DNA from: Deltaproteobacteria bacterium
GTDB taxonomy: Bacteria > Desulfobacterota > Binatia > Binatales > Binataceae
Reading direction: 5' to 3'
Assembly (NCBI GenBank): GCA_021799555.1
Contig: JAJZAG010000002.1
Span: 1-45,102, forward strand
DNA: 45,102 nucleotides
Below the pieces are notes generated by a model. The model saw only the letters and a program-made list of their open reading frames with translations, did no database searches and was not told the DNA's origin. Of this stretch, positions 23,979 to 40,025 are shown in pieces (within the stretch, counting starts at the first letter, position 1; each line of letters begins with the position of its first letter). A program made the translations under genes and the position numbers.

Positions 23979-26900
23979 TCAGTGAAAATCGTGCGAGGGC
24001 GGTATCGCACCGGGAAGCTTTATCTCAGCGAATTTGCGCGCACGGATCGCGGTGACGCCATCGACCTGCTGGAGCCATCCTTCGGCGTAGAGGATTCCCG
24101 CGCTGCGCAGCAGTGCGCGATGCTTCTGAAAAAGATCGGGCACGACGATCAAGTTCGCGATTCCGGTTTCGTCTTCGAGCGTGACGAACAGAAAGCCCTT
24201 GGCGGTGCCGGGGCGCTGGCGCACGATCACGACACCCGCGGTCTTGACCCACGAATCGTGCGGTGCGCGCAAAAGATCGGCGGCGCTGAGGATGCCGCGG
24301 GCCTTAAGCCGCGTGCGCAGATGGGTCATCAGATGCGGTCCGGTGGTGATGCCGGTCGCGGCGTAATCGGCCGTGGTCTCCTCGAGCGGCGACATCTTTG
24401 GCAGTGGCGCGGGCGGCGGTCCGGGCGCGCGGCGCGGACTTGCGCCGGCGAGTAAGCTTTTCGGGTCGCGCTCGACGGCGGCTGCGTTCCACATCGCGTC
24501 GCGCCGGGTCATTCCGAAGGCGGCAAACGCGCCTGCGTAGGCGAGTGCGTCGAGTTCGCGGCGATTCGGTCCGACGCGCGCAGTGAAGTCGGCGATCGAA
24601 TCGAACGGTCGCCGCGCGCGTTCGCGCTCCGCGCGCCGCCCGGTTTCCTCGCGCAGTCCGGCAACATAGCGCAGCCCCATCCGGATGCCGAGCGCGGCAC
24701 GCCTCCCCTCTGATCCTTCGCCCTGAAAGGGAGGTGCCACTGGCACGCGGCCAGGTGAGGGTCCTTCCATCGCGCGCCACGCTGCCGTGCCCGATCCCTC
24801 GCCCTGTAAGGGAGAGGTTTGGTGAGGGTCATTATTCAGCGCGGAGCGCAGCGGAGCGCGATTTGAAATCTGATGTATTAGTTTAGATTCTGGATTTTCC
24901 GAATCCGGAGCATCAGCCGCATCGTTCCGACCTAACCCCTGACCCCTTCCCGCACGGGAAGGGGAACTATGCGCGGCGGTGACAGGAGGTTCGTTAGCAT
25001 CCTCACCCGCGCGGCGCAGCGCCGCGTTTCCCTTTCCCGGGGGGGGAGGGTTAATCGGTACGCGATTTGCGCGATATTGGAGGGTACAGTTCCAATCCGA
25101 GCTGGTTACGTCGATCGGCAGCATCGTTACGCCGTGGCGTTCCGCGTCTTTGATCAGTGTCGCTGGAGAATAGAATCCGAGCGGATAGCAATTCAGCATC
25201 GCGGCGAAGAACGCCGCCGGATGATGATATTTCAGATAGGCCGAGGCATACGCGATTAGCGCGAAGCTCGCGGCGTGCGACTCGGGAAATCCATAGAGCG
25301 CGAACGAAGTGATCGAGCGCACGATATCGTCGGCTGATGCGCCGATAATCCCGTTGCGCGCCATCCCGCCGCGCAGCCGCGCCTCGATCTTTTCCATCCG
25401 CTCGGCCGAGCGCTTGAAGCCCATCGCACGGCGCAACTCCTCGGCCTCGCCGCCGGTAAAGCCGCCCACCGTCATCGCGATGCGCAGCAGTTGCTCCTGG
25501 AACAGCGGCACGCCGAGCGTGCGGCGCAGAATAGGTTCGAGCGCCGGATGCGGATACGTTACCGGCGCGCGTCCGTTTCTGCGGTCGAGGTAGGGATGCA
25601 CCAGCTTGCCGACGATCGGGCCCGGCCGGATGATCGCGACCTCAACCACCAGGTCGTAAAACCGCTCGGGCTTCATCCGCGGCAGCGTCGCCATCTGCGC
25701 ACGGCTCTCGACCTGAAAAACTCCGACCGTGTCAGCCCGTCTGAGCATTGCGTACACGCCAGGATCGTCGGGCGGCAGATGGGCGAGATCAATCTCGAGA
25801 TTTTCATGCGCGCGGATCATAGGGATCGCCTCCTCAAGCGCGGCGAGCATCCCGAGCCCGAGCAGATCGATCTTGATAATTCCCAGATCGGCGCAATCGT
25901 CTTTGTCCCACTGGATCACGACCCGGCCCGGCATCGAGGCCGGCTCGAGCGGAACGATCTCGTCGAGCGGCTGCGCGGCGATCACCATGCCGCCGCTATG
26001 CTGCCCGAGATGGCGCGGGATGCTCTGGATGCGCCGCACGAGATCGATAAGCATCCGGATACGCGGCGCTTCGGCATCGATACCGCCGCGGCGTAATAAC
26101 TCGACCAGGTCGTCGTGATGGTCGCGGAACTCATAGACCTGGTTGAGTTTTGCCAGCCGATCGACCTGCTCGGGAGAAAATCCCAACGCTTTGCCGACCT
26201 CGCGCACCGCGCTTTTGGTGCGGTAGGTAATCACGTTGGCGGTCATCGCGGCGCCGCGCTCGCCATAGCGGCGATAGACGTACTGGATCACGCGCTCGCG
26301 ATCGTCTCCGCTTGGAAGATCGATATCGATATCGGGCCATTCACCGCGCTCTTCGGACAAAAAACGCTCGAATAGCAGCTCCATCTTGACTGCATCGACC
26401 GCCGTGATTCCGAGCGCGTAGCAAACCGCGCTATTGGCGGCCGAGCCGCGGCCCTGCGCGATGATCCGGTTCTCGCGGCAGAACTGCACGATATCCCACA
26501 CGATCAGGAAATAGCCCGCGAGCTTCAGCCGCGCGATCACGTCAAGCTCGTGCTCGAGTTGACGGCGCGTGCGCACGTCGATTCCGCCGCGGCCCCATCG
26601 CTCGCGCGCACCCGCATAGGTCAGCGCGCGCAGGTAGCTGTCGGCGCTCTCGCCCGGCGGCAGAGGATAGTCGGGAAAGCGGTAGCCCATGTCCGACATG
26701 GTGAATTCGCATCGCTCGGCGATCGCGCGCGTGGCGGCGACGGCGTCGGGCAGGTCGCGGAATAACGCGGCCATCTCAGCCGGCGATTTCAGATGGCGAT
26801 TGCTGTTGACCCACAGTGCGCGTCCGGCTTCCTCGAGCGTGGTGCCGAGCCGGATGCAGGTGAGCACGTCGAGCAGGCGGCGATCCTCGAGGGCGGCGCA

Positions 26901-27722
26901 TACGTCGTTGCTCGCGGCGACGGGAATGCGCATCGTTTCGGCGATCGCGAAGAGTTTGCGGTTTAGCCGTTCTTCGCTGGCGTCGAGATGGCGCTGTAAA
27001 TCGATGTAAAGATTGTCCGCGCCGAAAATCCCGCGCAACCGATCCGTGAGTGCGCGCGGATCTTCGCCGCGCACGAGCGCGCGCGCAAGCGGGCTCATCA
27101 CTCCACCCGCAAGGCAGATCAGCCCCCGTCCGTAGCGCTCCAAATCCTTCAGGGTGACGCGGCTTTCGCCCTTGGCCGGATAAACCGGCTGTTCCGATCC
27201 CTCGCCCTGTAAGGGAGAGGTTAGGTGAGGGTCATTATTCAGCGCGGAGCAAAGCGGAGCGCACTCAAAATTCTGAGGATTTCTCGCCGCGGCAATCGCA
27301 TCGGATCGACCTAACCCCTGACCCCTTCCCGCACGGGAAGGGGAACTATGTCCCGATGCAACCGATGATTCGTCAGCGCCCTCATCCACGCGGCGCTGCG
27401 CGCGATATCCGAGCACGCGGAGCTTCGATGCGGTGATCATCCGGCAGAGATTCTTGTAACGCGCGCGGTTGGGGATGAGAACATAGAGGCGGCTGTTGTC
27501 GTCAAGCGTGAGTTCCGCACCGACAATCGGGCGGATCGTGGCGGCCTTTGCGCCCTGGAAGAAGCGGGGATGCCCGTACATCCCGTCGCAATCGCCGAGT
27601 GCGAGCGCGCGGTAGCCGAGTTCGGCTGCGCGCGCGGCAAGGTCCTCGGGGGTCGAGGCGCCCTCAAGAAAGCTGAACGCGCTGCGCGTCCGCAGCTCGA
27701 TATAGTCAGTCGTACACGCCAT
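23979..27722 (-). CDS. dnaE2: error-prone DNA polymerase III alpha-like subunit DnaE2 (ImuC)
   Basis: The ATG at 27722 gives MACTTDYIELRTRSAFSFLEGASTPEDL (PHP domain). GRGSAANSAVCYALGIT, WPDIDIDL, VFQVESRAQM and VAIIRPGPI are present. The start overlaps the imuB stop by 17 nt. The product is about 1247 aa, roughly 150 aa longer than usual because of two repeat-derived inserts. The ORF stays open up to 27818. Confidence 0.92.
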   Translation of the reverse strand: MACTTDYIELRTRSAFSFLEGASTPEDLAARAAELGYRALALGDCDGMYGHPRFFQGAKAATIRPIVGAELTLDDNSRLYVLIPNRARYKNLCRMITASKLRVLGYRAQRRVDEGADESSVASGHSSPSRAGRGQGLGRSDAIAAARNPQNFECAPLCSALNNDPHLTSPLQGEGSEQPVYPAKGESRVTLKDLERYGRGLICLAGGVMSPLARALVRGEDPRALTDRLRGIFGADNLYIDLQRHLDASEERLNRKLFAIAETMRIPVAASNDVCAALEDRRLLDVLTCIRLGTTLEEAGRALWVNSNRHLKSPAEMAALFRDLPDAVAATRAIAERCEFTMSDMGYRFPDYPLPPGESADSYLRALTYAGARERWGRGGIDVRTRRQLEHELDVIARLKLAGYFLIVWDIVQFCRENRIIAQGRGSAANSAVCYALGITAVDAVKMELLFERFLSEERGEWPDIDIDLPSGDDRERVIQYVYRRYGERGAAMTANVITYRTKSAVREVGKALGFSPEQVDRLAKLNQVYEFRDHHDDLVELLRRGGIDAEAPRIRMLIDLVRRIQSIPRHLGQHSGGMVIAAQPLDEIVPLEPASMPGRVVIQWDKDDCADLGIIKIDLLGLGMLAALEEAIPMIRAHENLEIDLAHLPPDDPGVYAMLRRADTVGVFQVESRAQMATLPRMKPERFYDLVVEVAIIRPGPIVGKLVHPYLDRRNGRAPVTYPHPALEPILRRTLGVPLFQEQLLRIAMTVGGFTGGEAEELRRAMGFKRSAERMEKIEARLRGGMARNGIIGASADDIVRSITSFALYGFPESHAASFALIAYASAYLKYHHPAAFFAAMLNCYPLGFYSPATLIKDAERHGVTMLPIDVTSSDWNCTLQYRANRVPINPPPPGKGNAALRRAGEDANEPPVTAAHSSPSRAGRGQGLGRNDAADAPDSENPESKLIHQISNRAPLRSALNNDPHQTSPLQGEGSGTAAWRAMEGPSPGRVPVAPPFQGEGSEGRRAALGIRMGLRYVAGLREETGRRAERERARRPFDSIADFTARVGPNRRELDALAYAGAFAAFGMTRRDAMWNAAAVERDPKSLLAGASPRRAPGPPPAPLPKMSPLEETTADYAATGITTGPHLMTHLRTRLKARGILSAADLLRAPHDSWVKTAGVVIVRQRPGTAKGFLFVTLEDETGIANLIVVPDLFQKHRALLRSAGILYAEGWLQQVDGVTAIRARKFAEIKLPGAIPPSHDFH
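24712..24764. repeat. solo left-end module (long variant) of the hairpin-ended repeat, inside dnaE2
   Basis: GATCCTTCGCCCTGAAAGGGAGGTGCCACTGGCACGCGGCCAGGTGAGGGTCC matches the long left end of the imuB copy, including the GTGCCA-C-TGGCAC stem. No core or right end follows. Confidence 0.7.
24793..24967. repeat. hairpin-ended MITE/REP-like repeat, copy A (in frame in dnaE2)
   Basis: The left end is GATCCCTCGCCCTGTAAGGGAGAGGTTTGGTGAGGGTCATTATTCAGCGCGGAGCGCAGCGGAGCGCG. The right end is CGACCTAACCCCTGACCCCTTCCCGCACGGGAAGGGGAAC. It is translated as SSPSRAGRGQGLGRND...PLRSALNNDPHQTSPLQGEGS. Confidence 0.85.
27196..27346. repeat. hairpin-ended MITE/REP-like repeat, copy B (in frame in dnaE2)
   Basis: Its ends are nearly identical to copy A (left end GATCCCTCGCCCTGTAAGGGAGAGGTTAGGTGAGGGTCATTATTCAGCGCGGAGC; right end identical over 40 nt). 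It is translated as SSPSRAGRGQGLGRSD...PLCSALNNDPHLTSPLQGEGS. Confidence 0.85.
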
Positions 27723-29430
27723 CGACGAACCACCGCTCCGAGTTGAGATCGCAAAACACGCGATAGACACCGCCGTCGTCGAGCGCGAGTTCATAATAGT
27801 CGCGCAGGAACCCGCCACGCTGCACGCCCATATCCGATTCCTCTCCCTGTAAGGGAGGTGCCACTGGCACGCGGCCAGGTGAGGGATCCTTATTCAGCGC
27901 GGAGCGCAGCGGAGTGTGGTTAAGATTCTGCGGATGATTCGGCGTGCCAGCCGAATCGGGTCGACCTACCCCCTGACTCCTTCCCGCACGAGAAGGGGAA
28001 CCAGGTGCGATGCTTGGGCGGAGGTCTGTGGGCAAGGTGGATGAATCGGCGGCGGCCGCGCCTTTCCACCATTCGCCGTCGCGGCGCCACGGTCCCGCGA
28101 TCGAGACCACACGCGCGCCGAGATTCGCACCGCGCACGAACTCCGGCCCGCCACGTGAGACCATCACCTCGATTTCGAGCGCGGGCCGCAGTGCCCGGAG
28201 CACAAGCTGCGCGACCGGTTTGCCGCATGCGCCGTTGTGGTCAGGACGCGGTGGCGGCGGATCAAACGGCTCCAGACGTATCGCCTCAGGCCGGTATGAA
28301 TTCTCCGCGCGTAACGCGCCGACGTTGCCGGGGCCGCACAGCGCCGCGAGCCGCGCGATCGTGGTCGCGAGCCGATCGGGAGCCGGCGCGGGCGGCAGAA
28401 ACATGTCGGCCTGCGCGGGGCGCGGCGCACGCGGCGTGATTTCGAGTCTGACCGTCTCGACGGCGGCCTCCGGCGGCGCGGCTTCAAGCGCAAGGTTGAT
28501 GAGCGTCAGGATCGCGCGCACGTCGCAGGTGGGCGCGGCGATCGCGATGCGGCGGCTTGCGATCCGATGGTCTTCGAGTCCAAGCACGAGGATCGCGTCG
28601 CCCGCGGCGAATCCGCGCAGATGAAGACGCGCGATGATCCGTTCGAGGGCTCCGCGAATCACGAAGCCCAGCGGTTCGAGATTGTCGATCGCGTAATCGA
28701 GTTCGGCGGCTTCGGTGAAAATTTCCGCGCGCCGACGCGCCACGATCGGCCGCGAGCTTCCGCCCCGCGCAAGGCGCACCAGCTCGACCCCGCGCCGTCC
28801 GAGCCTGCTGCCGATAGCGTCCGGATCCAGGCGCGCCAGATCACCCAGCCGGCGCATCCCCCAGCGCGAAAACGTCGCTTCGAGCTCCGCGCCGGGATCG
28901 AGCATCTCCAGCGGCAGCCAATCGATGAACTCGCGCTCGCGTCCTGCGCCGATCACCCGGACGCCGCCGCATCGCGCCGCTATCGCGGCGATCTCGCGGC
29001 TCGCGCCGACGCCGACCGCCGCTTCCATCCCGAGCCTGCGCACGCGCCGCTGAAGCTCAATCGCAAGCTCGTCTTCGCTGGAGAAGATTCGCCCGAGGCC
29101 TGCCAGATCGAGCCATACGCATCCGGGCGCGCCCGGCTCGACGATCGGCGAGATCGATTCCGCGGCGTCGGCGAGCGCCTGATGCGCTGAATTTTCGGCG
29201 GCGGGCGCGGGCGCATTTACGATCAGTTTGGAAGAGACGGCGCGCGCCTGCGCCAGCGTCATCCCGGCGCGGATTCCGAGCGCGCGCGCGGATGACGAGA
29301 CGGCAACAACCTCGGCATGCGTGGCGGAGCTTGCGGCGATCGCGAGCGCGGCGCCTTCGAGCGCGGGATTAGCACGCACCATCGCGGCGATCGAAAAATC
29401 GTGAACCATGATGCATGCGATACGCGCCAT
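27706..29430 (-). CDS. imuB: Y-family-polymerase-like protein ImuB
   Basis: The gene sits between imuA and dnaE2 and is translationally coupled to both. The N-terminus MARIACIMVHDFSIAA and an overall Y-family (UmuC/DinB-like) layout are present. The C-terminal W...RDYYEL...WFVDG motif is typical of ImuB. Confidence 0.85.
   Translation of the reverse strand: MARIACIMVHDFSIAAMVRANPALEGAALAIAASSATHAEVVAVSSSARALGIRAGMTLAQARAVSSKLIVNAPAPAAENSAHQALADAAESISPIVEPGAPGCVWLDLAGLGRIFSSEDELAIELQRRVRRLGMEAAVGVGASREIAAIAARCGGVRVIGAGREREFIDWLPLEMLDPGAELEATFSRWGMRRLGDLARLDPDAIGSRLGRRGVELVRLARGGSSRPIVARRRAEIFTEAAELDYAIDNLEPLGFVIRGALERIIARLHLRGFAAGDAILVLGLEDHRIASRRIAIAAPTCDVRAILTLINLALEAAPPEAAVETVRLEITPRAPRPAQADMFLPPAPAPDRLATTIARLAALCGPGNVGALRAENSYRPEAIRLEPFDPPPPRPDHNGACGKPVAQLVLRALRPALEIEVMVSRGGPEFVRGANLGARVVSIAGPWRRDGEWWKGAAAADSSTLPTDLRPSIAPGSPSRAGRSQGVGRPDSAGTPNHPQNLNHTPLRSALNKDPSPGRVPVAPPLQGEESDMGVQRGGFLRDYYELALDDGGVYRVFCDLNSERWFVDGVYD
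27836..28001. repeat. hairpin-ended MITE/REP-like repeat, copy C (in frame in imuB, long left end)
   Basis: GATTCCTCTCCCTGTAAGGGAGGTGCCACTGGCACGCGGCCAGGTGAGGGATCCTTATTCAGCGCGGAGCGCAGCGGAG ... CGACCTACCCCCTGACTCCTTCCCGCACGAGAAGGGGAAC. It is translated as GSPSRAGRSQGVGRPD...PLRSALNKDPSPGRVPVAPPLQGEES. Confidence 0.85.
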
Positions 29431-29442
29431 GATACATCCGGG

Positions 29443-30576
29443 TTAGCGCGCCGCATCTGCGGCTGCATCTGATCCCTCGCCCTGTAAGGGAGAGGCCAGG
29501 TGAGGCACATTATTCAGCGCGGAGCGTAGCGCAGCGCGATTAAAATTCCGAGGGCGTTCCGGCGCGTCAGCCGAATCGTTTCGACCTAACCCCTGATCCC
29601 TTCCCACACGGGAAGGGGAACCAGATCTGTTGATTCTGCTGATGTCCCCGTAGGTAGCGGATGATTCAGCAGGCTCATGTTCAGAGCTGTGTCCGCTTCC
29701 CTTCCCGATGCGGCGAGGGCGGCAGGCTTCGCCCGCGAGACGAGGCCGCTCCGGATGCGCCCGCGCGATATCAGCATCGGATAGCGGCGCATCGCATACC
29801 GGATCGATCGCGGCGATAATTCGCGTGACCGCGCCCGAGCCGCCGAGCTTGTTGCGCGTGATGACGGATTCGAGTCTCAGCCCGTCGAAGAGCGCGGGCG
29901 CGCCGGGGCGGATCCGGCTGAACGACGCACTGGCGCGATTCATCGTGAGGCTCAGCGCCGCGAAGGTTCCGCAAATCCTGCGCGGTGCGATCGCGATCAC
30001 GGCGGCTCCGCTGCGCTCGGCCGCCCGTGCGATACGCAGCACGGCGCTGTCGGGAATCGCACGAAAAATATCGCCGAAATCGATTACTACCAGGCCGAAG
30101 CCTCCCGCCTCGAGCACCATCTCGGCGGCCTTGAGGATTCGTCCCTCGCGCGAGGACGTGAGGCGCGCGCGATTAGCCTCCCGCGGAATCGAGACCCACA
30201 GTACGCGCGCGAGCTCGACTCCGGCGGCGGCGATACTAGTGGGATCGAATGCACCAGCAGCATCGATCCATGCGATAACCTCTCCACTTCCAGTCGCATT
30301 AGCAGCGAAGGCCGCTACGAGCGAAGTCCTGCCAGTCCCGGCGCGTCCGATAACTTCGCTGACCCGGCCGCGCGCGATTCCACCGTCGAGAATAGCATCG
30401 AGCGCATCGATACCCGAAGCGAGCCGCCGCGCCTTGCGCGTAAGCTCCCGCCCACGAAAAACTCCAGCAAAATCAGCTAGATGAGACTCATTTCCAAGGG
30501 CAGACGAGAGTGGATGCAGCGGCGAAGCAGCCGAGGGATTAGAAGAGATCCATGGAGCTTTGATCGCAGCCGCCAT
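29443..30576 (-). CDS. imuA: ImuA (RecA/SulA-like SOS mutagenesis protein)
   Basis: It is the first gene of the cassette, and its stop lies 12 nt before the imuB ATG. The RecA-like core has a degenerate P-loop (VIGRAGTGRTSL), WIDAAGAFDP and GLVVIDF. The 377-aa product has a ~120-aa low-complexity C-terminal tail that contains repeat copy D. Confidence 0.75.
   Translation of the reverse strand: MAAAIKAPWISSNPSAASPLHPLSSALGNESHLADFAGVFRGRELTRKARRLASGIDALDAILDGGIARGRVSEVIGRAGTGRTSLVAAFAANATGSGEVIAWIDAAGAFDPTSIAAAGVELARVLWVSIPREANRARLTSSREGRILKAAEMVLEAGGFGLVVIDFGDIFRAIPDSAVLRIARAAERSGAAVIAIAPRRICGTFAALSLTMNRASASFSRIRPGAPALFDGLRLESVITRNKLGGSGAVTRIIAAIDPVCDAPLSDADIARAHPERPRLAGEACRPRRIGKGSGHSSEHEPAESSATYGDISRINRSGSPSRVGRDQGLGRNDSADAPERPRNFNRAALRSALNNVPHLASPLQGEGSDAAADAAR
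29471..29621. repeat. hairpin-ended MITE/REP-like repeat, copy D (in frame in the imuA 3' end)
   Basis: GATCCCTCGCCCTGTAAGGGAGAGGCCAGGTGAGGCACATTATTCAGCGCGGAGCGTAGCGCAGCGCG ... CGACCTAACCCCTGATCCCTTCCCACACGGGAAGGGGAAC. It is translated as GSPSRVGRDQGLGRND...ALRSALNNVPHLASPLQGEGS. Confidence 0.85.
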
Positions 30577-30582
30577 GAATCA

Positions 30583-30612
30583 ATTTTCGCTTTTTCTTCG
30601 CTATTAAGTCAA
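30583..30612 (-). promoter_or_regulatory. candidate sigma70-type promoter giving a leaderless imuA mRNA
   Basis: On the minus strand, TTGACT (30612-30607) is followed by an 18-nt spacer, GAAAAT (30588-30583), 6 nt, and then the imuA ATG (30576). No Shine-Dalgarno is visible upstream of the ATG. Confidence 0.25.
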
Positions 30613-31086: not shown

Positions 31087-32112
31087 TCAGACTTCGCGGT
31101 CGATCTGTTCGTCGATAATCGCGGCCAAGCTGTCGCGATAGGGCGAGGGACGCAACTCGCGCAGGATGTCGCGCGCAATCATTACCTCAGCGGCAGCCAT
31201 CGCGCGTGCCTCGGCGATAAGCTTCGGGTCGCGCAGGATTTCGAGTGCGCGTTGGAAGGCGGCGCCTGACATCTCGACCCGGTTTTGCAGCATCTGCTTG
31301 AGCTCGGGATTGCGCGCGGCTGCGAGCACGACCGGCAGCGAGGGGATTCCCTCGCGTAGATCGGAGCCGACCGGTTTGCCGATTTTTTCCTCGGGTCCGA
31401 GGACATCGAGCAGGTCGTCAATCATCTGAAAGGCAAGCCCCATCGTAAGCCCCAGGCGCGACATCGCGTCGATTCCACCGCTGGGCATCCCGGCCAAATC
31501 GGCGGCGACTTTTCCGCCCGCGTAAAATAGCGATGCGGTCTTGCGCGTGATCACCTGGCGATAGTCGGCGATAGTCGCCGAGGCGCTGTGACGCAGCCTG
31601 CCCTCCATCACCTCGCCCTCCGTCAGTTCGATACAAGCCTGCGCCGCCGTCCGGACCAGATGCTCCTCGAAGCGGCCGCATAGCTCGAAGGCGCGGCAGA
31701 ACATATAGTCGCCCGCGATCAGGGTGGGTGCGAATCCGTAGCGCGCGAGCGCCGAGGGCTTGCCGCGACGCAGGCGGCCGGCGTCAATAATGTCGTCATG
31801 CAATAGCGTCGCTGAATGGATCAGTTCGAGGGCGATCGCCGCGTCGATCGCGTCTTCAATTTTTTCGTCCGAGCCGCCACACGCGCGGTACACCAGCAAG
31901 ATGAAAATGGGGCGCAGGCGTTTGCCGCCGCCATCAACCAGGTAATGACAAATCTCCGCGATCAGCGATTCGTTCGAGTCGAGCAGGCGGGTGAGCTTGG
32001 CCTCGGCGGCGGCGAGATCGGCTTCGACGATCGCAGCGGGATTTGATAGGGCGCGATTGGCCGACGCGGGAGCGCGCCGGCTGGCGAGATCGATGGTTTT
32101 GGCTTTTTTCAC
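31087..32112 (-). CDS. polyprenyl diphosphate synthase (trans-IPPS, long/medium chain)
   Basis: The first Asp-rich motif is LLHDDIIDAGRLRRG and the second is FQMIDDLLD. KRLRP is present near the N-terminus. The gene starts 3 nt after the cofE stop. Confidence 0.9.
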   Translation of the reverse strand: MKKAKTIDLASRRAPASANRALSNPAAIVEADLAAAEAKLTRLLDSNESLIAEICHYLVDGGGKRLRPIFILLVYRACGGSDEKIEDAIDAAIALELIHSATLLHDDIIDAGRLRRGKPSALARYGFAPTLIAGDYMFCRAFELCGRFEEHLVRTAAQACIELTEGEVMEGRLRHSASATIADYRQVITRKTASLFYAGGKVAADLAGMPSGGIDAMSRLGLTMGLAFQMIDDLLDVLGPEEKIGKPVGSDLREGIPSLPVVLAAARNPELKQMLQNRVEMSGAAFQRALEILRDPKLIAEARAMAAAEVMIARDILRELRPSPYRDSLAAIIDEQIDREV

Positions 32113-32115
32113 GGG

Positions 32116-32868
32116 TTAGCGGAATAAATCGGCTTCGGCGGGGCGAATCAATACTTTCGCACTGCCGTCGAAGGGTTGATAGGGATAGCCGCGCACCAGC
32201 ACGGCGGGAATCGCGCCGGCTTTTTCCATCAGCAGGCCGGCCGCGCAGGCCAGTTCGTCGGCGATCGCAACGACGGTGTGATGCAGTTCGCGGCCGGCCA
32301 GATCAGCGGTGCCGCGCAAATCAAGCATCGCGTTCATTCCGGCGATCCCGAGGCAGATTTCGGTCAGGCCGTCGCGCCATGGACGACCGAATGTGTCGGT
32401 GACGAGCACGGCGAGGTCGACGCCGAAGCGGTCGCGGAGACCAGTGCGGATTCTGCGCGCGGAGGCGTCGGGATCGACGGGCAAGAGGATTGCGCTGTCG
32501 TTTTCGAGGCTGTTGGATTCATCGACGCCTGCGTTGGCGCAGACCCATCCGGGACCGGTCTCGACGATAATCACGCCGCGATCGTTGCGCACGATGCGAT
32601 TGGTCTGGCGCAGCACGAGCTCGACGGCGCGCGGATCTTTTTCCCACCTTGCGGCGACACTTTTAGCGAATTCCGACGGTTCGATATCGCCAAGATGGAC
32701 TACGCGGCCCTCGGATTTCGAGACGATTTTCTGGCAGACGACAAGGATATCGCAAGTTTCGGGGCGAAGTCCGCTGCGGTCGAGTGCGTCTCCGATAAGC
32801 GCGGCCAAATCGTCGCCCGCCTTGACCATCGGGATTCCTTCGATCGCGGTGAGTGAAATCGAGCGCAT
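32116..32868 (-). CDS. cofE: coenzyme F420-0:L-glutamate ligase (single-domain CofE)
   Basis: The ATG at 32868 gives MRSISLTAIEGIPMVKAGDDL. CQKIVSKSEGR and CANAGVDESN are present. The 250-aa product has no C-terminal nitroreductase-like domain. Confidence 0.88.
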   Translation of the reverse strand: MRSISLTAIEGIPMVKAGDDLAALIGDALDRSGLRPETCDILVVCQKIVSKSEGRVVHLGDIEPSEFAKSVAARWEKDPRAVELVLRQTNRIVRNDRGVIIVETGPGWVCANAGVDESNSLENDSAILLPVDPDASARRIRTGLRDRFGVDLAVLVTDTFGRPWRDGLTEICLGIAGMNAMLDLRGTADLAGRELHHTVVAIADELACAAGLLMEKAGAIPAVLVRGYPYQPFDGSAKVLIRPAEADLFR

Positions 32869-32881
32869 CGGTCGGACAAGC

Positions 32882-33847
32882 TTACACGGGAAGCGCGCGC
32901 AGGACCACATCGGCGAGCCGCGCCGCCTTTTCGGGGGTGGTCATAATCGTATCCGTGACGGCCGCGCGCATCCCGAGTTTTTCGATTGCGGGTGCCAAAG
33001 CGCGGTCGGCGTTGTCGATGACGAAGGTGCCAGCTATATCCTGGTAAAGGCGGGCGACCGCGAGCGCCGACGCCGGCATCCCGAGTCCGCGCAGCATCTT
33101 GTCCGCAGGCCCCTTGATCGTTTTGCCGCCGACAATCGGGCTGATTGCGGCGACGTGGGGACGTATGCGGTGCAGTAGCGTGCGCACGCCGCGCAGGGCC
33201 AAGATCGGGCCGAGTGAGACGAAGGGATTCGACGGCGCCATGATCACCGCGGCTGACTCGCCGATTGCGCGTAGCGCCGCCGGAAGCGGACCGGCGGCGC
33301 GCGCGCCGCGTATCTCGATCCGCTCGACGATGCCGCGCGCCCGCCCGCGGACAAAGTATTGTTGGAAGGCAAGCGGCGCTCGGCCGCGGAGTTTTACGAA
33401 CGTTCGCACCTGATCGTCGCTCATCGGCATCACCTCGGCGCGGACGCCCAGCGCGCGCGCGATTTCGGCCGTCACCTGCGACAGGCGCGCGCCGGCGCGC
33501 ATCCGCTCGGTGCGGTAGATGTGGGTGGCCAAGTCGCGGTCGCCAAGCGTGAACCAGTGCGGACCGTAAAAACGATCGAGCGCCTCGAGCGTCGCGTGCG
33601 AATCGTTTTCGCGGCCATAGCCCAGCGTCCGGTTGACCACGCCCGCGAGCGTATAGGTCACGGTGTCGATATCGGGCGAGACGTGGAGGCCATAGAAGAT
33701 GTCGTCGTCGCCGGTGTTGACGACGATCGACATCCTCTCAGGCGCAACCCGACGCGCCAGGCCGCGGATGAACTTAGCAGCACCCACTCCCCCCGCAAGC
33801 GTGGTGATCCGCGAGCGGGGTGGAAGTGGCAATCGGGCGCGCCCCAT
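32882..33847 (-). CDS. cofD: 2-phospho-L-lactate transferase (CofD/FbiA)
   Basis: ITTLAGGVGAAKFIRGL, VVNTGDD and GPHWFTLGDRDLATH are present. The start at 33847 (or TTG 33832) overlaps the cofH 3' end. Confidence 0.88.
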   Translation of the reverse strand: MGRARLPLPPRSRITTLAGGVGAAKFIRGLARRVAPERMSIVVNTGDDDIFYGLHVSPDIDTVTYTLAGVVNRTLGYGRENDSHATLEALDRFYGPHWFTLGDRDLATHIYRTERMRAGARLSQVTAEIARALGVRAEVMPMSDDQVRTFVKLRGRAPLAFQQYFVRGRARGIVERIEIRGARAAGPLPAALRAIGESAAVIMAPSNPFVSLGPILALRGVRTLLHRIRPHVAAISPIVGGKTIKGPADKMLRGLGMPASALAVARLYQDIAGTFVIDNADRALAPAIEKLGMRAAVTDTIMTTPEKAARLADVVLRALPV

Positions 33848-35027
33848 TGGGAGCCTTTTTTCCGTAGAGTTTTTTGTAGAGGGTGTTGCGTTCGACGGCG
33901 ACGCGGCCCATCGCGCGCGCTTTTTCCTCGATCAAATCGACCGGTACGAACTCGCCGGATTCGCCACCCGCTTGCGCGGTGATGCTCTCCTCCATCAGGG
34001 TGCCTGAAAAATCGTTGCACCCGGCCTTGAGCGTAAGCGCGGCGAGATCGGGTCCGAGCTTCACCCATGAGGTCTGCAGATTGTCGATATAGCCGCGCAG
34101 GAAGACGCGCGAGAACGCATACATCTGGAAGTCGAGTGTGCCGTTTGGGATCTCCTTAACAAGTCCTTTGCGGAACATCATCGTGTTCTGATGAATAAAG
34201 CGCAGCGGCACGAACTCGGTGAATCCGTGCGTCTCTTTCTGGATCGTGCGGAGCAGGTTCAGGTGATTGACTACCTGGCGCGGAGTTTCGATATGCCCGT
34301 ACATCACGGTCGAGGTGGTCGGCACTCCGGCGGCGTGCGCGCTGGTGATGATATCGACCCACGCCGCGACATCGACCTTTTTGTGCGAAAGGATCTCCCG
34401 CACAGAATCGTCAAGAATCTCGGCCGCCGTGCCGGGAATCGACCCTAGACCGTGATCGCGCAGCATCGCGATATATTCCGGATATTCCATGTGCACACGC
34501 TTGGCGCCGTACATGATCTCCATCGGAGAGAACGCGTGAACGTGGATAGCCGGGAACGCGCCTTTGATCACGTCGAGCAGGTCGCGGTACTTAAAGGGTG
34601 GCATCTCGGGATTAATCCCACCCTGCATGCAGACTTCGGTGGCGCCACGCGCGACCGCGTCGGCGACTTTGCCGAGGATAACCTCGTCGGAATGGTCGTA
34701 GGCGTCGGACTCCCAACGCTGGCGTTTGAAGCCGCAGAACTGGCAGCCGACAAAACAGATATTGGTGAAGTTGAGATTGCGATTTACGACATAGGTGACT
34801 TCGTCGCCCACATCTTCGGCGCGCGCGAGGTCCGCGCACTTCACCAGGGCGCGCAGATCGTCGCCCTTCGCGGTGTAAAGCGCGAGTCCTTCTTCGGGCG
34901 TGATTTCAATTCTCGCGCGGCTGTTTTCGAGCGGTGCTCGAACGGTGGGCGAGGCTTTGGCAAGGAGCACCTCGACCGGGGTCGCTGCGATTTCGTTAAC
35001 CCAGTTTCGCCAATCGGCAAGATTCAT
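33774..35027 (-). CDS. cofH: FO synthase subunit 2 (radical SAM, CofH)
   Basis: The radical-SAM cluster motif is NICFVGCQFCGF. ATG 35027 overlaps the cofG TGA (ATGA). The product is collinear with CofH (…GGINPE…, …SGTLMEE…). Confidence 0.9.
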   Translation of the reverse strand: MNLADWRNWVNEIAATPVEVLLAKASPTVRAPLENSRARIEITPEEGLALYTAKGDDLRALVKCADLARAEDVGDEVTYVVNRNLNFTNICFVGCQFCGFKRQRWESDAYDHSDEVILGKVADAVARGATEVCMQGGINPEMPPFKYRDLLDVIKGAFPAIHVHAFSPMEIMYGAKRVHMEYPEYIAMLRDHGLGSIPGTAAEILDDSVREILSHKKVDVAAWVDIITSAHAAGVPTTSTVMYGHIETPRQVVNHLNLLRTIQKETHGFTEFVPLRFIHQNTMMFRKGLVKEIPNGTLDFQMYAFSRVFLRGYIDNLQTSWVKLGPDLAALTLKAGCNDFSGTLMEESITAQAGGESGEFVPVDLIEEKARAMGRVAVERNTLYKKLYGKKAPNGARPIATSTPLADHHACGGSGCC

Positions 35028-36244
35028 GATGCTGTTCCCCGGGTTCGTTCCCAAATCGCGCGCACATTAGTCGCGACCGCCGGGTCGAGCCATTCGTCAT
35101 TTATATATTCTTGGTAAACGGCCAGGCGCTCGCCGAGCGTAAAGCCCGCGCGTGCGCACCTTTCGCCGAGGCGTTCGAGATGCGGCCACGGCGCTTCGGG
35201 ATTCACATAGTCTTTCGACAACGGCGAGATTCCGCCGAAATCGTTGATTCCCGCGCGGATGAACAGCTCGATTTCGCCGGGCGATAGATTCGGCGGCGCC
35301 TGCACGTTCATCGCGGGACCGAGGACCAGGCGTGCGGTGGCGATCGCGCGCGCCATCTCGTAAGCCTCGGGCTCGGGCGCCGATGCCATCGCGATTTCCG
35401 GCTTGGCTCGGAAATTCTGGATGATGACTTCCTGAATATGACCGTGACGCTCGTGCGAATCGCGCAGCGCGATCAGGCTCTGAGCGCGCTCGGCGACGGT
35501 CTCGCCGATTCCGAGCAGGATTCCGCTCGTGAACGGGATTCGCAGTGCGCCGGCTTCGTCGATCATCTTCATCCTGAGAGCAGGATCCTTGTCGGGCGCC
35601 GCCTGATGCGCTCCGCCGCGTGCGCGCAGCCGCGGCGAGATCGACTCGAGCATCAGCCCCATCGAGACATTGAGCGGCCGCAGCATCGCCATTTCGTCGC
35701 GCGACATCAGCCCGGCATTGGTGTGCGGCAACAGCCCCTCGCCGATCGCGATCGCGCACGCGCGGCCGACGTATTCGATCGTCGAGCGAACGCCGAGCGT
35801 GTCGAGCGTCGCGCGATATTCCTTGAACGCGACCTCGGGCTTGTCGCCCAGGCACATCAGCGCCTCTTTGCATCCGAGCTCGTGCCCGCGGCGCGACCAT
35901 TCGGCGATCTCGGCGGGCATCATGGTCCATGCGCCGGGGTCGCCGGGATCTTTGCGGAACGTGCAGTAGGTGCAGCGGTCGCGGCACAGATTCGTGATCG
36001 GCAGGAAAACCTTGCGCGAGTATGTGATCGCGTGGCCCTTGCCGCGGTCGCGCAGCTCGCCGGCCACGGCGAGAAGATCCTCGAATTCGCTCGCTGGGCA
36101 ATCGATTAGGGCGATCGCTTCGGCCTCGGTCAGGCGCGCGCCGCCGAGCGCGCGATCCAGCACCGGGCGAATCGATGCAGCCGAGCGAGCGAAAGATATA
36201 GCGGCAAGCTCTGCGAAGGCCATCCTTCGGTCCTTATAGGCCAT
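35024..36244 (-). CDS. cofG: FO synthase subunit 1 (radical SAM, CofG)
   Basis: The radical-SAM motif is TNLCRDRCTYCTF. ...GLMLESIS..., FTSGILLGIGE and IIQNFR are typical of CofG. Confidence 0.9.
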   Translation of the reverse strand: MAYKDRRMAFAELAAISFARSAASIRPVLDRALGGARLTEAEAIALIDCPASEFEDLLAVAGELRDRGKGHAITYSRKVFLPITNLCRDRCTYCTFRKDPGDPGAWTMMPAEIAEWSRRGHELGCKEALMCLGDKPEVAFKEYRATLDTLGVRSTIEYVGRACAIAIGEGLLPHTNAGLMSRDEMAMLRPLNVSMGLMLESISPRLRARGGAHQAAPDKDPALRMKMIDEAGALRIPFTSGILLGIGETVAERAQSLIALRDSHERHGHIQEVIIQNFRAKPEIAMASAPEPEAYEMARAIATARLVLGPAMNVQAPPNLSPGEIELFIRAGINDFGGISPLSKDYVNPEAPWPHLERLGERCARAGFTLGERLAVYQEYINDEWLDPAVATNVRAIWERTRGTAS

Positions 36245-36333
36245 ACCATAGGTGCAGGCAACCGACAGGTTTCAGTTTGCTACTGGCTCGTTGCGTGATA
36301 GCGACTTGCGCCGGCGAACGGGTGGGGCGCAAG

Positions 36334-36960
36334 TCACGGTATGAACATCATCCCAATCATCAGAAGAGGTACAAGCCAGCTCATCCAGCTCGTTTGTTGC
36401 TGGCTGACGTACTGTTGTGTTTGATCCACGGCAGGGTAATTTTGCTGATTTGCGATTTGGGATAGAACTTTGTTCGCGTCGCTGCCGTTGGATCCGGAGG
36501 AAGTTCCCGCGGAGGCCGAATCGTTGTTTGCAGCGAGTAGCTCCGGCTGGACGACTACACGATTTTCAATCACGACGTCGGGATCTCGCACGACCTGCCG
36601 CACCCTGGCTTCCGCGTTTTGCTTGCCATACGGAGTTGCCGTGTACCCATAGAGGATCACTTGGCGGCTGGTCCCACTACCTAGAACTTGCGCGCCGACA
36701 AGCGGAAGACGATGGTTTTTAAGGTAGTCGGTGATGACTCGGCTCTGACCAGCGGGATCCGTAGGCAATTCGGGCAGCGACTCCGTCGAACCGGAATGCA
36801 CCGCGCCGCTTCCTGACTCAATTTGAGGGGCTGACGGGGTCGCTACGGGGGCTGGAACTGCCGGTGCGCTGGAGACTGCCGCGCATGCTTCCATCCCGAT
36901 CGCACCTAGAACTAGCGAAACTACCAGAGCGATTTGGGCCACCCGCTCCATCGCAGTCAT
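36334..36960 (-). CDS. BON domain-containing membrane/periplasmic protein
   Basis: An N-terminal signal or anchor (IALVVSLVLGAIGMEACA), a BON-like segment (ITDYLKNHRLPLVGAQVL...VILYGYT...AEARVRQVVRDPDVVIENRVVV) and a C-terminal hydrophobic helix (WMSWLVPLLMIGMMFI). Confidence 0.65.
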   Translation of the reverse strand: MTAMERVAQIALVVSLVLGAIGMEACAAVSSAPAVPAPVATPSAPQIESGSGAVHSGSTESLPELPTDPAGQSRVITDYLKNHRLPLVGAQVLGSGTSRQVILYGYTATPYGKQNAEARVRQVVRDPDVVIENRVVVQPELLAANNDSASAGTSSGSNGSDANKVLSQIANQQNYPAVDQTQQYVSQQQTSWMSWLVPLLMIGMMFIP

Positions 36961-37025
36961 CGGGAAATCCTCTATCGATTATTGCATAGTGTAGCACTTA
37001 TTCCGGTTCGGCAAGCATCGGGCGT

Positions 37026-37676
37026 TCAAGCGATTTTGGGCAAATTCCAATGGCGCCAAACCGCGATGATTCGAAGGCCAAAGCAAAACACGCCGCCGAG
37101 GATCGCGGAGAGCGTCGGCGAGATCCCGAGCTTGCGGCTGATGACCATCACCGTGGCGCCGGCCAGCGCCGCAGTCGCGTATACGTCGGAAAGCAAAATG
37201 GCGGGCACGCGCGAGAGCAGCACGTCGCGCACCGTACCCCCGCCGACGGCCGTGATCGTTCCCATCAAGGTTGCGATGAAGGCGTTGATCTGATTGTCGA
37301 GCGCCTTCGCGGTTCCCGCGACCGCGAATAGCGCGAGACCGCCGGCATCGAGTGCGACGAGTACCGGAAAAGGAATTCGCCAGATGAACTGATGGACTAA
37401 AATCACCGCGGCGCCACCGGTGAATGCGATCGCGGCGTAACGCCAATCGCGAATCGCCTGTGGCGGCGTCGCACCTATCAACACGTCGCGGATGATCCCG
37501 CCTGCCAGTGCTGTTGCGAACGAAAGCACCATGATTCCGAAGACGTCGAGATTGCCGATAATCGCAGCCATCGCTCCTTCCGCCGCGAACACGACCGTTC
37601 CCGCAATATCCACCGCGAAGAGCAAACGGTTCGGAGCGGAAATTGCTGGTCTCGTCGATGGATCGTTGATAGGCAC
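37026..37676 (-). CDS. trimeric intracellular cation channel (TRIC/UPF0126) family protein
   Basis: Two UPF0126 repeats are present, with the conserved Gly-rich kinks LAGGIIRDVLIG and VGGGTVRDVLLS. There are seven predicted TM segments. Confidence 0.8.
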   Translation of the reverse strand: MPINDPSTRPAISAPNRLLFAVDIAGTVVFAAEGAMAAIIGNLDVFGIMVLSFATALAGGIIRDVLIGATPPQAIRDWRYAAIAFTGGAAVILVHQFIWRIPFPVLVALDAGGLALFAVAGTAKALDNQINAFIATLMGTITAVGGGTVRDVLLSRVPAILLSDVYATAALAGATVMVISRKLGISPTLSAILGGVFCFGLRIIAVWRHWNLPKIA

Positions 37677-37700
37677 GTGGCTGGCTTGCGATGTGCCGAG

Positions 37701-38657
37701 TTACTTCGCGCGCACCGCTGGAATCACGTCTTCGGCAAAGCGCTGGACCTCGTCCATCTGATAGGGAGCCATCTGCATGAAAATGAAATGCGTCACTCCC
37801 GCTTTGCGGTAACGCTCGACCGTGTCGAGGCATTCATTTTTGCCGCCGATCATGATCTGGCGGCGTGCTTCTTCGGGCTTCTGTCCGCTCATCGCTCCGA
37901 CCAGCTGCATGACCATCTGCTCGCGCTCTTTCGACGCGCCGTAACATAGCGCCATCATGACCGTCTTCTCGATTTCGTCGGTGTTGCGCCCTTCGGTGTC
38001 GCCGTGACGCTCGATGACACTGATCAGATGCGCTATTCGCTCTGCGCTGCTGCCTGTCGAGTTCCACATGTCGGCGTGGCGCGCAACCAGCTTGAGCAGA
38101 GTCCTTTCTCCCTGGCCTCCGATCATAATCGGCGGATGCGGCCTGGTGAGCGGCTTCGGATTGCAGACCGCGTCCTTTACCTTGTAATGCCGTCCGTCGA
38201 GGCTGGTCTTGTTCTGCGTGAACATCCCCTTGATGATCTTGACCGATTCATCGAGCGCGCCCAGGCGGCCGGGAATCGTTTTGAAATCGATACCGAAGCT
38301 CTGATGCTCCAGCTCGTACCATCCAGCGCCGATTCCCAGGTTCAGCCGTCCTTGCGAAGCGACATCGAGCGTCGCCGCCATCTTCGCCAGCACGCACGGG
38401 TTGCGATAAGTGTTGCCGTTGACCAGCGCTCCGATTCGCGCGCGCTTGGTATGCTGGCTGAGCGCGGACAGCAGGGTCCATCCTTCCATGCACGGCCCGG
38501 TCGGGTCGGGCACGAAAATCGGATAGAAATGATCGAACACCCAGAGCGAGTCGTAACCCCAGCGGTCGGCCTTGCTCCAGAGGTCGCGAATTTCGTCGAA
38601 GGAGACATTCTGCTGTCCGGTCTGAATTCCAAAGCGAATCGGATGAGTCGTCGGCAT
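37701..38657 (-). CDS. LLM-class F420-dependent oxidoreductase
   Basis: MPTTHPIRFGIQTGQQNVSFDEIRDLWSKADRWGYDSLWVFDHF, RIGALVNGNTYRNP, GRLNLGIGAGW and PPIMIGGQGE form the typical luciferase-like F420 group pattern. Confidence 0.85.
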   Translation of the reverse strand: MPTTHPIRFGIQTGQQNVSFDEIRDLWSKADRWGYDSLWVFDHFYPIFVPDPTGPCMEGWTLLSALSQHTKRARIGALVNGNTYRNPCVLAKMAATLDVASQGRLNLGIGAGWYELEHQSFGIDFKTIPGRLGALDESVKIIKGMFTQNKTSLDGRHYKVKDAVCNPKPLTRPHPPIMIGGQGERTLLKLVARHADMWNSTGSSAERIAHLISVIERHGDTEGRNTDEIEKTVMMALCYGASKEREQMVMQLVGAMSGQKPEEARRQIMIGGKNECLDTVERYRKAGVTHFIFMQMAPYQMDEVQRFAEDVIPAVRAK

Positions 38658-38999
38658 CGCGGGTACCTCCTGATATTCGCATCAACGTAACATCAAGCTT
38701 GGGCAGGGCGAAGCCGCCGCTTTGGCGATTCAACACGCGGGGCACATCGTCGCTGCCCAATTCTCGGTGCAAGCCAATACGCCCCCGCCCGAAATATTCG
38801 CTCGAGATCCCAACTGACGTGCGCTTACGTCACGGCTGCCGCGCGCGATGCTGCCGAATCTTGATGACGCGGCGAGCGCAATGCTTCCAGGGATCGAACC
38901 CGTCGCTCGGTCGAGCGTTTAGTTGCCGGTTGGCCCGCTTGCCATCGATGCGCTACTCTTTTTTCTGATTTACCGACGCATCGAGGAGAATCGTCAGTT

Positions 39000-40025
39000 A
39001 TGCCTCAAGCCGAGGGTGCGCGCGTGCAGCCCGAGACCGCCGCGCGCGTCGAATATGAACTTCAGCTCTACTACTGGATGAAGCTGATCCGGGCGTTCGA
39101 GGATCGCGTCTCGCGGCTTCATCGCCAGAACAAAATCATGGGCGGCGTCTACTCGGGCGCCGGCCAGGAAGCTATCTGCACGGGAATCTGCGCGCCGCTC
39201 AAGGACGGCGATTTCGTCGCACCGCTGCATCGCGATCTCGGCGTCTTCCTGGTCCGCGGATGTGATCCTGCGCGGTTGATGGCGCAATTGATGGGCAAAG
39301 AGACCGGGCTGTCGCGCGGCAAGGACTCCTTCCTGCACGGCGGCGACATGGAGCATCTCATTTTCGGATCGACCTCGATGCTGGGATCATCGCTGCCGGT
39401 CGCTGTTGGCGCGGCACTTAAGTTCCGCATGAAACGCGAGAAGAACATCGCAGTCGCGTTTTTCGGCGAGGGTGCGTCTTCGCGGGGCGACGTGCACGAG
39501 GCGATGAATTTTGCCGGCGTGCAAAAGCTGCCAGTCCTGTTCGTGTGCGAGAATAATCGCTACGCCTACTCGACTCCGCTCGAAAAGCAGATGGCGATCG
39601 ACGACGTCGCCGACCGTGCCGAAGCTTACGGATTCAAGGGCCACGTCGTGTCGGGCAATGACCTGCTCGCGGTGCTCGAGGTGAGCGAGCGTGTGATCGC
39701 CCACGTCCGTGCGGGCGAGGGCCCTGCACTTATCGAGTGCAAGACCTACCGCTATCGCGGCCATAGCGAGCACGACGCGGCGCTGTACCGCGATCAGGAA
39801 GAGTTGCTCGAGTGGCAGACTCGCGACCCGATTCCGCAATATGAGTTGTTCCTTGAAAAGAAGGGCCATGACCTGAAGCATATCCGCGAGCAGATCGACG
39901 AGCGGACCCATCGCGTGGTCCAGGAGGCGGTCGATTTTGCCGAACAGAGCCCGCTGCCCAAACCTGAAGAAGCACTCGAAGATCTATACGCGCCCAATAG
40001 CGGCGCCGTTTCGAAAGCAAAATAA
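39000..40025 (+). CDS. 2-oxoacid dehydrogenase E1 component, alpha subunit (TPP-dependent)
   Basis: The TPP motif is VAFFGEGASSRGDVHEAMNFAGVQKLPVLFVCENNRYA, and YRYRGHSEHD is present. GAGGAGAA lies upstream of the ATG. Confidence 0.9.
   Translation: MPQAEGARVQPETAARVEYELQLYYWMKLIRAFEDRVSRLHRQNKIMGGVYSGAGQEAICTGICAPLKDGDFVAPLHRDLGVFLVRGCDPARLMAQLMGKETGLSRGKDSFLHGGDMEHLIFGSTSMLGSSLPVAVGAALKFRMKREKNIAVAFFGEGASSRGDVHEAMNFAGVQKLPVLFVCENNRYAYSTPLEKQMAIDDVADRAEAYGFKGHVVSGNDLLAVLEVSERVIAHVRAGEGPALIECKTYRYRGHSEHDAALYRDQEELLEWQTRDPIPQYELFLEKKGHDLKHIREQIDERTHRVVQEAVDFAEQSPLPKPEEALEDLYAPNSGAVSKAK

Follow-up and report, generated by a model that had tools for sequence, protein, structure and literature searches.

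The stretch of DNA analysed here, referred to as the window, comprises 45,102 nt from an uncultured soil bacterium of the family Binataceae and contains a mutasome operon whose three genes, all on the minus strand, carry hairpin-ended repeats within their reading frames. The genes are imuA (29443–30576; 377 aa), imuB (27706–29430; 574 aa) and dnaE2, or imuC (23979–27722; 1247 aa). ImuA is RecA-like (Pfam RecA, KaiC and Rad51). ImuB has the Pfam domain IMS, and its homologues carry the name ImuB or Y-family polymerase in the source records. DnaE2 combines Pfam PHP, DNA_pol3_alpha, DNA_pol3_finger and HHH_6 with PDB matches to Pol III alpha. These domains and the gene order imuA-imuB-dnaE2 identify the locus as an ImuA-ImuB-DnaE2 mutasome operon of the family described in PMC6511836. 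The C-terminal strands of ImuB have AlphaFold pLDDT values of ~69–80, which fits the ImuB-C domain, a beta-rich region proposed to be the DnaE2-binding part (PMC6511836). A sigma-70-type consensus scan found a single promoter-like site in the operon, TTGACT-18-GAAAAT upstream of imuA (30583–30612, minus strand), which is a consensus match only. The corresponding proteins of a compact relative (L128) have 257, 500 and 1033 aa, so that the DnaE2 of the window is ~214 aa longer; among compact relatives, ImuA has 257–291 aa and ImuB ~500 aa.

Repeat finding, pattern searches, alignment and a profile hidden Markov model (HMM; nhmmer) were used to locate the repeats. Four full units and one additional end, which an initial annotation made from the sequence had proposed, were recovered by the first, second and third of these approaches. 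All are on the minus strand: one unit in imuA (29471–29621), one in imuB with an A' variant of the left hairpin (27836–28001), one at an N-terminal site of dnaE2 (27196–27346), where both terminal hairpins are seen in the fold, and one at a C-terminal site of dnaE2 (24793–24967), which is made up of an A hairpin, a core, a variable part and a B hairpin. The additional end is an A' hairpin (24712–24764; an nhmmer hit) with a 14-nt palindromic mini-insert, GTGCCACTGGCACGC, that encodes SPGRVPVAPPFQGEGS. Its identity to the imuB copy's left end (27833–27885), which also contains GTGCCACTGGCACGC, is 91%. Units are 151–175 bp long and encode 50–58 aa of low complexity. In shuffled sequence, the chance expectation is 0.00 for both the 23-nt right-end pattern and the 22-nt left-end pattern. 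The earlier claim that the rest of the window has no copies also holds up: loose motif searches and the profile HMM found none in the remaining 38.5 kb, where the single other match to a 13-nt motif (615–627) has two mismatches and lacks a hairpin.

Each end of a unit consists of a 9–10-bp GC-rich hairpin followed by an inverted repeat of the GGTGAGGG/GGTTAGGT type, and the two ends are in inverted orientation. [quoted passage not shown] The stems are less regular than first described. The left stem is present but has one G.A mismatch in three copies, and the right stem is a perfect 10-bp stem in the two dnaE2 copies but not in the imuA and imuB copies. Folding differs between species. Units of the type found in a sister species (L007) form two terminal hairpins and a long inverted-repeat stem, at −91.8 kcal/mol compared to −63 kcal/mol for shuffles (z = −6.7). 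Units of the window type keep both hairpins and the GGGGTTAGG/CCTAACC pairing, with inverted-repeat pairing reduced to ~9 bp, and as a whole are not more stable than shuffles (z = −0.9).

Compared with outgroups, the units are real but are parts of larger inserted arrays that exceed the extents first proposed. Array lengths are 240–384 nt in the window and reach 585 nt in relatives, and compact relatives have 0–13 residues at the four insertion places. The DnaE2 C-site array (24693–25076, minus strand) adds 128 aa between ...DWNCTLQ and LGIRMGLRYV, where outgroups (L128, L130) have 0–7 residues. In mRNA order, it consists of a D-type hairpin remnant, B hairpin, core, A hairpin, spacer and A' hairpin. 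The D-type end remnant (25000–25052, minus strand) comprises CCTCACCC, an inner hairpin, GCGCGGCGCAGCGCCGCG, and a degenerate terminal hairpin, and by alignment corresponds to the right end of L007 units; its inner hairpin was also detected at 25009–25027. The A' end at 24712–24764, initially regarded as a solo end, was correctly placed but, rather than standing alone, forms the terminal module of a composite that runs core, A hairpin, spacer, A' hairpin. This composite recurs at further sites and in further species (L006, L131, L007 and ImuB homologues). In the PHP domain of DnaE2 (N-site), a 240-nt array (27177–27416, minus strand) encodes 80 aa between SKLR and AKGESR; the same site is empty (3 nt) in L003, L005, L006 and L128 and holds 33–57 hairpin-free nt in L129 and L130.

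In ImuB, the array occupies a loop of the ImuB-C domain (27814–28065, minus strand) and adds 84 aa between GEWW and GFLRDYY. This loop ranges from 4 aa in L128 (GEWW-SGAS-GFARDYY) to 195 aa in L005, and its compact form is also found in ~30 short ImuB homologues. Loop arrays of 12, 39, 252, 255, 378, 438, 567 and 585 nt occur across relatives, always in frame. The variable C-terminal tail of ImuA (29446–29796, minus strand; 117 aa) contains an E-type hairpin remnant besides the repeat unit, as delimited by alignment with L128 and L129, whose ImuA proteins terminate shortly past ...IDPV/IDAV. The E-type remnant, CCCTTCCCGATGCGGCGAGGG (29697–29720, minus strand), encodes ...RPRRIGKG... and matches, by eye only, the CCCTCCCCGATGCGGGGAGGG module of L003, L005 and L006. 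Solved structures of Pol III alpha align on either side of both DnaE2 sites, with few residues between the aligned blocks (~9 at the C-site in Taq Pol III alpha). ImuB residues 459–537 mostly have pLDDT < 50 and no secondary structure in an AlphaFold model (62 homologues) and lie between strands 441–448 and 543–550. The ImuB insert is thus predicted to be a disordered loop between confident beta strands, which answers the initial suggestion that structure prediction be used to check for a loop location. The proposal that homologues are normally contiguous at these places is confirmed by empty or compact sites in L003, L005, L006, L128, L129 and L130, and the sequence comparisons indicate that the segments are insertions and not ancestral sequence.

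The dnaE2 gene of another relative (L131, 7069–11427) is an unbroken frame of 1452 codons across a much larger PHP-site array, and the gene caller started it after the array. About 1 kb of element-rich DNA lies between the called end of imuA and imuB in the same relative (L131, 4049–5118). Automatic annotation of array-bearing genes is unreliable.

Translation bears out the earlier observation that imuA, imuB and dnaE2 read every copy in a single frame without stops. A single frame of the six is free of stops in all four copies; the other five hold one to four stops in most copies. The uniform orientation and frame can be understood as survivorship, because selection against truncation leaves the only open frame, and the shared orientation and frame would thus require no insertion bias. 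Host genes of the window and L007 have 92% amino-acid identity and 74% identity at fourfold sites, which indicates strong purifying selection. They read as working genes with passengers rather than as pseudogenes. Intein, intron and bypass readings were rejected, since every unit keeps the frame and lacks stops, which is expected only if they are translated; for an intein, there is moreover no Hint or intein Pfam hit, and a unit encodes just 50–58 aa compared to at least ~130 aa for an intein. An encoded-peptide profile searched against 5.8 billion proteins retrieved one short hypothetical protein, in a search that was insensitive (the query is of low complexity and the host proteins were missed). 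Inspection of the encoded peptide, by eye only, gave no match to a clamp-binding or RecA-NT motif. A search of Rfam matched nothing in the entire window at gathering thresholds and, over 24600–29750, nothing in the units at E ≤ 1. The sigma-70-type scan found no promoter-like site inside the units, which leaves the idea of an antisense promoter without support.

Mis-assembly at repeats, which had been named as a possible refutation, is excluded, an artefact being hardly conceivable here. A separate JGI metagenome assembly contains the entire operon in identical form. An identical ImuB occurs on three other contigs, and the protein is found on NCBI contigs and on a 232-kb ENA contig. Orthologous in-frame arrays occur in at least seven other assemblies from many samples and assemblers; the contig_NNNN names of some of these suggest long-read assembly. 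Reading frames run unbroken through arrays of up to ~300 aa. Nothing was found that favours an artefact, and the one contig end in dnaE2 (~26739) is not at a repeat. It belongs to an NCBI contig of a metagenome-assembled genome (MAG; DAHZDX010000018.1), which stops inside dnaE2, away from the repeats, while the JGI contig and the window continue.

The concentration of copies in the operon is real. Under any uniform density, P ≤ 1e-4 for at least four insertions in 6.6 kb together with none in 38.5 kb, which excludes the possibility, raised at the outset, that a randomly abundant repeat would be expected to occur here this often. A scan with an exact core pattern (GGTGAGG-N3-5-TTATTCAGCGCGGAGC) over one genome per species (185,579 species) gave ten matches, all in four Binataceae-type MAGs, and nine of the ten are in imuA, imuB or dnaE2. 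Two of these MAGs are titled Binataceae and two ‘uncultured delta proteobacterium’, with closely related operons. Outside the operon, contigs of 473 and 526 kb had no match to the exact core pattern. The in-frame repeat pattern is common to a whole family of species. The generic hairpin is very common, with at least 120 metagenome stretches from many lineages, and four of the ~16 listed loci with a full-length core are imu operons. Most non-operon copies at the listed metagenome loci are between genes or at gene ends.

Copies outside imu operons have features of their own. Core and hairpin often form head-to-head inverted pairs there, which gives long perfect-type palindromes (L040, 1697–1883; L052, 7750–7940; L070, 6767–6970; L080, 119–310). 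Several non-operon copies have a second internal hairpin with arms that are locus-specific yet complementary, a pairing that is lost in operon copies. A second highly conserved sequence family, ...GGGAGAAGCGATCACCTCTCCCTGGCAGGGAGAGGTCAGGTGAGGGTCGATTGACTTATGAAACTACTTGTAG..., shares the generic hairpin and is found on 15 or more unrelated metagenome contigs from soil and sediment, with loci that include L022, L028, L037, L053, L054, L064, L069, L104, L106 and L115.

Modules are specific to lineages and are shared by the copies of an operon. The four copies of the window have the B-hairpin module and a GTA loop in common, the four copies of L007 share another right half (the D module) together with a GAA loop, and copies in L003, L005 and L006 have a third module in common. 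The imuB and dnaE2 N-site composites of L131 are near-identical over more than 250 nt. For an 82-nt core, identity is 0.88 within a genome and, between clades, 0.87 for the same site and 0.87 for different sites, so that no orthology signal is evident. A tree of this core has no grouping by site or genome, and where its positions vary, shared variants form mosaics among copies. Sharing of modules within an operon points to repeated gene conversion and module turnover, for which it is the pattern expected.

Copies outside the operon occur in a related genome (L004) and on many metagenome contigs, and the sole gene-bearing relative of the units encodes a DUF559 nuclease rather than a transposase. 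The constant part of the operon units (A hairpin and ~55 nt of core) is homologous to the 5' flank of small genes for DUF559 proteins, which are Vsr-like with a PD-(D/E)XK fold. The clearest example is a 119-aa DUF559 gene (Pfam E = 5e-34) on another contig of the L007 genome (L004, 5850–6590, the same as metagenome locus L033, 740–1420). Here, the A hairpin, GGTGAGGG and core run up to the start codon (nhmmer E = 7e-15), an inverted end lies 3' of the gene, and a gene-less copy and an A'-type end adjoin it. Among 120 listed loci picked by the hairpin alone, a DUF559 gene directly adjoins in ~12, often with inverted hairpins on both sides and in both GC-rich and AT-rich lineages. Bracketed DUF559 loci include L114 (2580–3135), L026, L055, L097, L102 and L118. 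In the reverse direction, all three DUF559 loci that were picked regardless of hairpins (L132, L134, L135) have such a hairpin directly upstream of the start; GGGTGAGGG follows the hairpin in L132 and L135, and a degenerate version does so in L134.

The encoded proteins carry the same signature. Tails of the ...PHPxPLPxGEG type (e.g., ...PHPCPLPKGEG, ...PSPLQGEG) occur, by a loose pattern, in 86 of 120 DUF559 homologues (P0122–P0241). This tail is the translated 3' inverted repeat and is of the same peptide type as the ...DPHLTSPLQGEGS of the operon. DUF559 is PF04480, and homologues also carry PF18741. Many are on contigs of ~1 kb or less, as is the case for repeated DNA. Hairpin-bracketed DUF559 genes look like a widespread cassette, and we infer that the repeats in the operon derive from such cassettes and have lost the gene. 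The literature searched on DUF559, Vsr-like elements, Binatia and ImuB disorder gave no account of these repeats or of a link between the hairpin and DUF559.

In behaviour, the repeats resemble several known types of palindromic or selfish DNA. The Rickettsia palindromic elements (RPEs), cited initially as a precedent, are an apt analogy to judge from the account in PMC10969869, which summarises Ogata et al. (2000, 2002). As far as that summary goes, RPEs are palindromic repeats of ~100–150 bp that lie in frame in genes, have one stop-free frame, occupy fold-tolerant places and lack a transposase of their own. The window units likewise have one conserved frame and fold-compatible positions. 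The same summary has RPEs scattered over dozens of unrelated genes, whereas the four to five units here are in three genes of one operon. The units here also form composite arrays that vary in length between close species, evolve in concert and are linked to DUF559, and their host belongs to the Binataceae, a GC-rich free-living soil group. The likeness is one of behaviour, which makes the repeats an analogue and not members of the RPEs. REP sequences and REPINs share with them short GC-rich imperfect palindromes that are single, in inverted pairs or clustered, and a small gene flanked by inverted copies (PMC3733652). However, REPs are extragenic and their RAYTs are IS200/IS605-type tyrosine transposases (PMC3733652), whereas copies here are intragenic and the flanked gene encodes a Vsr-like nuclease. 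Membership in the REP/REPIN-RAYT system was rejected: all window copies are inside genes, and at the DUF559-adjacent loci examined the gene between inverted copies is DUF559. No RAYT-like gene is among the genes called and examined at these loci, for which no targeted search was made, and the terminal GTAG/CGTC tag of tagged REPs was not noted by eye.

MITEs such as ERIC, Correia and QMITE1 (PMC10969869) are small, have terminal inverted repeats, lack a transposase, form long hairpins and are occasionally fused in frame to genes. The sizes of the window units and arrays, which lie within the ~50–500 bp of MITEs, the pairing terminal inverted repeats and the restriction of Pfam matches in the three proteins to host domains agree with such elements. 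Classical MITEs differ in having target-site duplications and an identifiable parent insertion sequence, neither of which was found here, and in-frame survival is here the rule and not the exception. Inteins and homing endonucleases also provide cases of selfish DNA in frame in polymerase and RecA-type genes, and a Vsr-like nuclease and a plausible spread by gene conversion are further points of likeness (PMC3239194). Unlike inteins, the units have no Hint domain, are far too short and appear to stay in the protein, and the nuclease gene is outside the insert. The kind of element (in-frame palindromic, RPE- or MITE-like) is already known. What sets this case apart is its concentration in one SOS-type operon across a family, the composite arrays, the concerted evolution and the kinship with DUF559 cassette ends.

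We consider passenger elements with local conversion to be the best explanation, with a probability of roughly 0.6. The repeats would be non-autonomous, hairpin-ended MITE/REP-like elements, derived from DUF559 cassettes through loss of the gene, that land in four permissive places: the PHP-domain loop, the junction before the DnaE2 helix-hairpin-helix (HhH) domain, the ImuB-C beta-domain loop and the ImuA tail. Copies in the single stop-free frame and orientation would survive and, as the unbroken frames suggest, would be transcribed and translated as disordered loops. Sites may then grow and shrink via nested insertion, deletion and ectopic gene conversion between copies 0.6–2.4 kb apart, as shared modules suggest, and these processes would produce both the composite arrays and concerted evolution within the operon. 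Enrichment would come from local spread by recombination combined with tolerance of loops in a normally repressed, non-essential operon, and not from a dedicated function. Attributing the enrichment to spread and tolerance is the weakest step. Several observations weigh against this explanation. Filled and empty PHP-loop sites have no convincing target-site duplication, where boundaries are blurred by older linker sequence, and the comparison of filled and empty sites revealed no defined target motif. To our knowledge, DUF559 is a nuclease fold and not a known transposase, and we know of no mobilising enzyme. Any two copies of the core and A hairpin share ~87% identity, compared to 61–77% at host fourfold sites and as little as 61% at those of dnaE2 between lineages with operon copies. 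A passive element is expected to decay, and conversion among three to four local copies cannot slow divergence between species. At first and second codon positions, conservation of the core is roughly on a par with that of the polymerase itself. The lone cassette seen in the related genome (L004) differs from the operon copies at two positions of the invariant 16-mer, so frequent overwriting from a master copy is not evident. The core is either refreshed from unseen sources or selected in place.

Selection in place is what a domesticated element would predict, and this is the alternative that we take most seriously, although we regard it as unlikely. The core and A hairpin would be selected for a role in the mutasome, either as a peptide segment shared by the three subunits, a flexible tag that serves assembly, localisation or turnover, or as a DNA or mRNA site (protein binding, mRNA stability, translational pausing or antisense). 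The ~87% core identity across lineages with dnaE2 fourfold sites at 61% speaks for it, as does TTATTCAGCGCGGAGC, invariant in 19 of 23 aligned operon copies. Core diversity by codon position (0.072, 0.099, 0.158) indicates some coding-type constraint, with third positions ~2x as variable as first, a weak signal of peptide constraint; third positions of the core also vary less than host third positions. A broken second hairpin (GGAGCG..CGGAGC) marks operon copies, most non-operon copies keeping a covarying hairpin, and the three genes have correlated occupancy among species. However, the ImuB insert is predicted to be disordered and to lack secondary structure, and outside the core the arrays turn over at about the neutral rate or faster, with large indels (imuB arrays are 59–78% identical over their aligned parts). 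L128 and L129 keep an intact operon with empty sites, so the segments are dispensable for the basic machine. At the nucleic-acid level, the A hairpin has no compensatory change and most copies have a mismatch, window-type units fold no better than shuffles, and the Rfam and promoter searches of the units were negative. A bolder combination is more doubtful still. In it, the core and hairpin are a domesticated module kept by selection in all three genes, either as a disordered peptide tag that coordinates ImuA, ImuB and DnaE2 or as a shared nucleic-acid site (e.g., for breaks by a DUF559-type nuclease that induce SOS and reshuffle linkers), and behind it are undescribed hairpin-bracketed DUF559 cassettes that are selfish or mobile in many phyla.

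Spread of a homing type would shift the cause to the nuclease, and we consider it rather improbable. A DUF559 nuclease encoded elsewhere would cut the units, and break repair would copy arrays, both homogenising and seeding them, with the operon as a recurrent target rather than a passively tolerant site. DUF559 genes are tightly associated with the same inverted hairpins, many of their homologues are on very short contigs like repeated DNA, and another Vsr-like family, I-Bth0305I, serves as homing endonucleases (PMC3239194, PMC2677866). What is duplicated between sites is a composite array rather than a single unit, and shared variants are mosaic among copies. Yet there is no DUF559 gene in the window or beside any imu operon examined, and DUF559 has no known cleavage activity or target. 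Under homing, loss of the recognition site is normally favoured, which does not predict a conserved core, and the choice of the mutasome operon as target is left unexplained. It is very improbable that the segments are ancient host linkers, that is, old lineage-specific segments of low complexity that are alike by chance and are not mobile DNA. A large ImuB clade (L130) does have a hairpin-free insert of ~75 aa in the same loop that is conserved at the peptide level (...HPRQVSAENLKALS...) and faintly unit-like, and the short PHP-site flanks VL... and ...EQPVYP are older than the element. Against this, three different genes share the DNA itself and not only a similar peptide, this DNA also occurs between genes beside a DUF559 gene elsewhere in a related genome, close relatives have empty sites, and the units have terminal inverted repeats and hairpins. 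The initial annotation had proposed that homologous peptides with diverged DNA at the same sites would indicate such linkers. For the core, this is contradicted by its conservation at the DNA level; for the ImuB loop, one large clade with a diverged, hairpin-free insert (L130) does fit.

The surroundings of the operon are conserved in relatives (window 31087–39000, upstream of imuA; L001, L129, L130). Genes upstream of imuA encode a polyprenyl synthase and enzymes of F420 biosynthesis (two radical-SAM proteins of the CofG/CofH type, CofD and F420 ligase). As the neighbourhood is kept across relatives, the operon is chromosomal and vertically inherited in the Binataceae family. A complete 4.58-Mb Binataceae-type genome (L130, 8300–12130) has a rearranged operon: the imuA position is taken by a called gene of just 164 aa, upstream of which is a 1.2-kb gap; imuB and dnaE2 are separated by a CopG-antitoxin-like gene; and the ImuB loop has a hairpin-free 79-aa insert. 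Inside dnaE2 of the window and outside the repeats, the Rfam small RNA family Xoo8 has a weak match (25982–26110, minus strand; 20.9 bits compared to a gathering threshold of 90, E = 0.0065) that is almost certainly due to chance.

These repeats provide a clear case outside Rickettsia of palindromic elements in frame inside proteins. Growth of composite arrays and concerted evolution within one operon are two features that are absent from the RPE descriptions covered by the summary cited above. The repeats also draw attention to a common bacterial hairpin motif, CCCTCTCCC...GGGAGAGG-NNN-GGTGAGGG, that is tied to DUF559 endonuclease genes. Four places in ImuA, ImuB-C and DnaE2 tolerate 80–300 extra residues, which is of use for tagging the complex, still structurally poorly known, and for mapping its domains. 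If the conserved core is functional, it would represent a mobile element recruited by the mutation-generating machinery.

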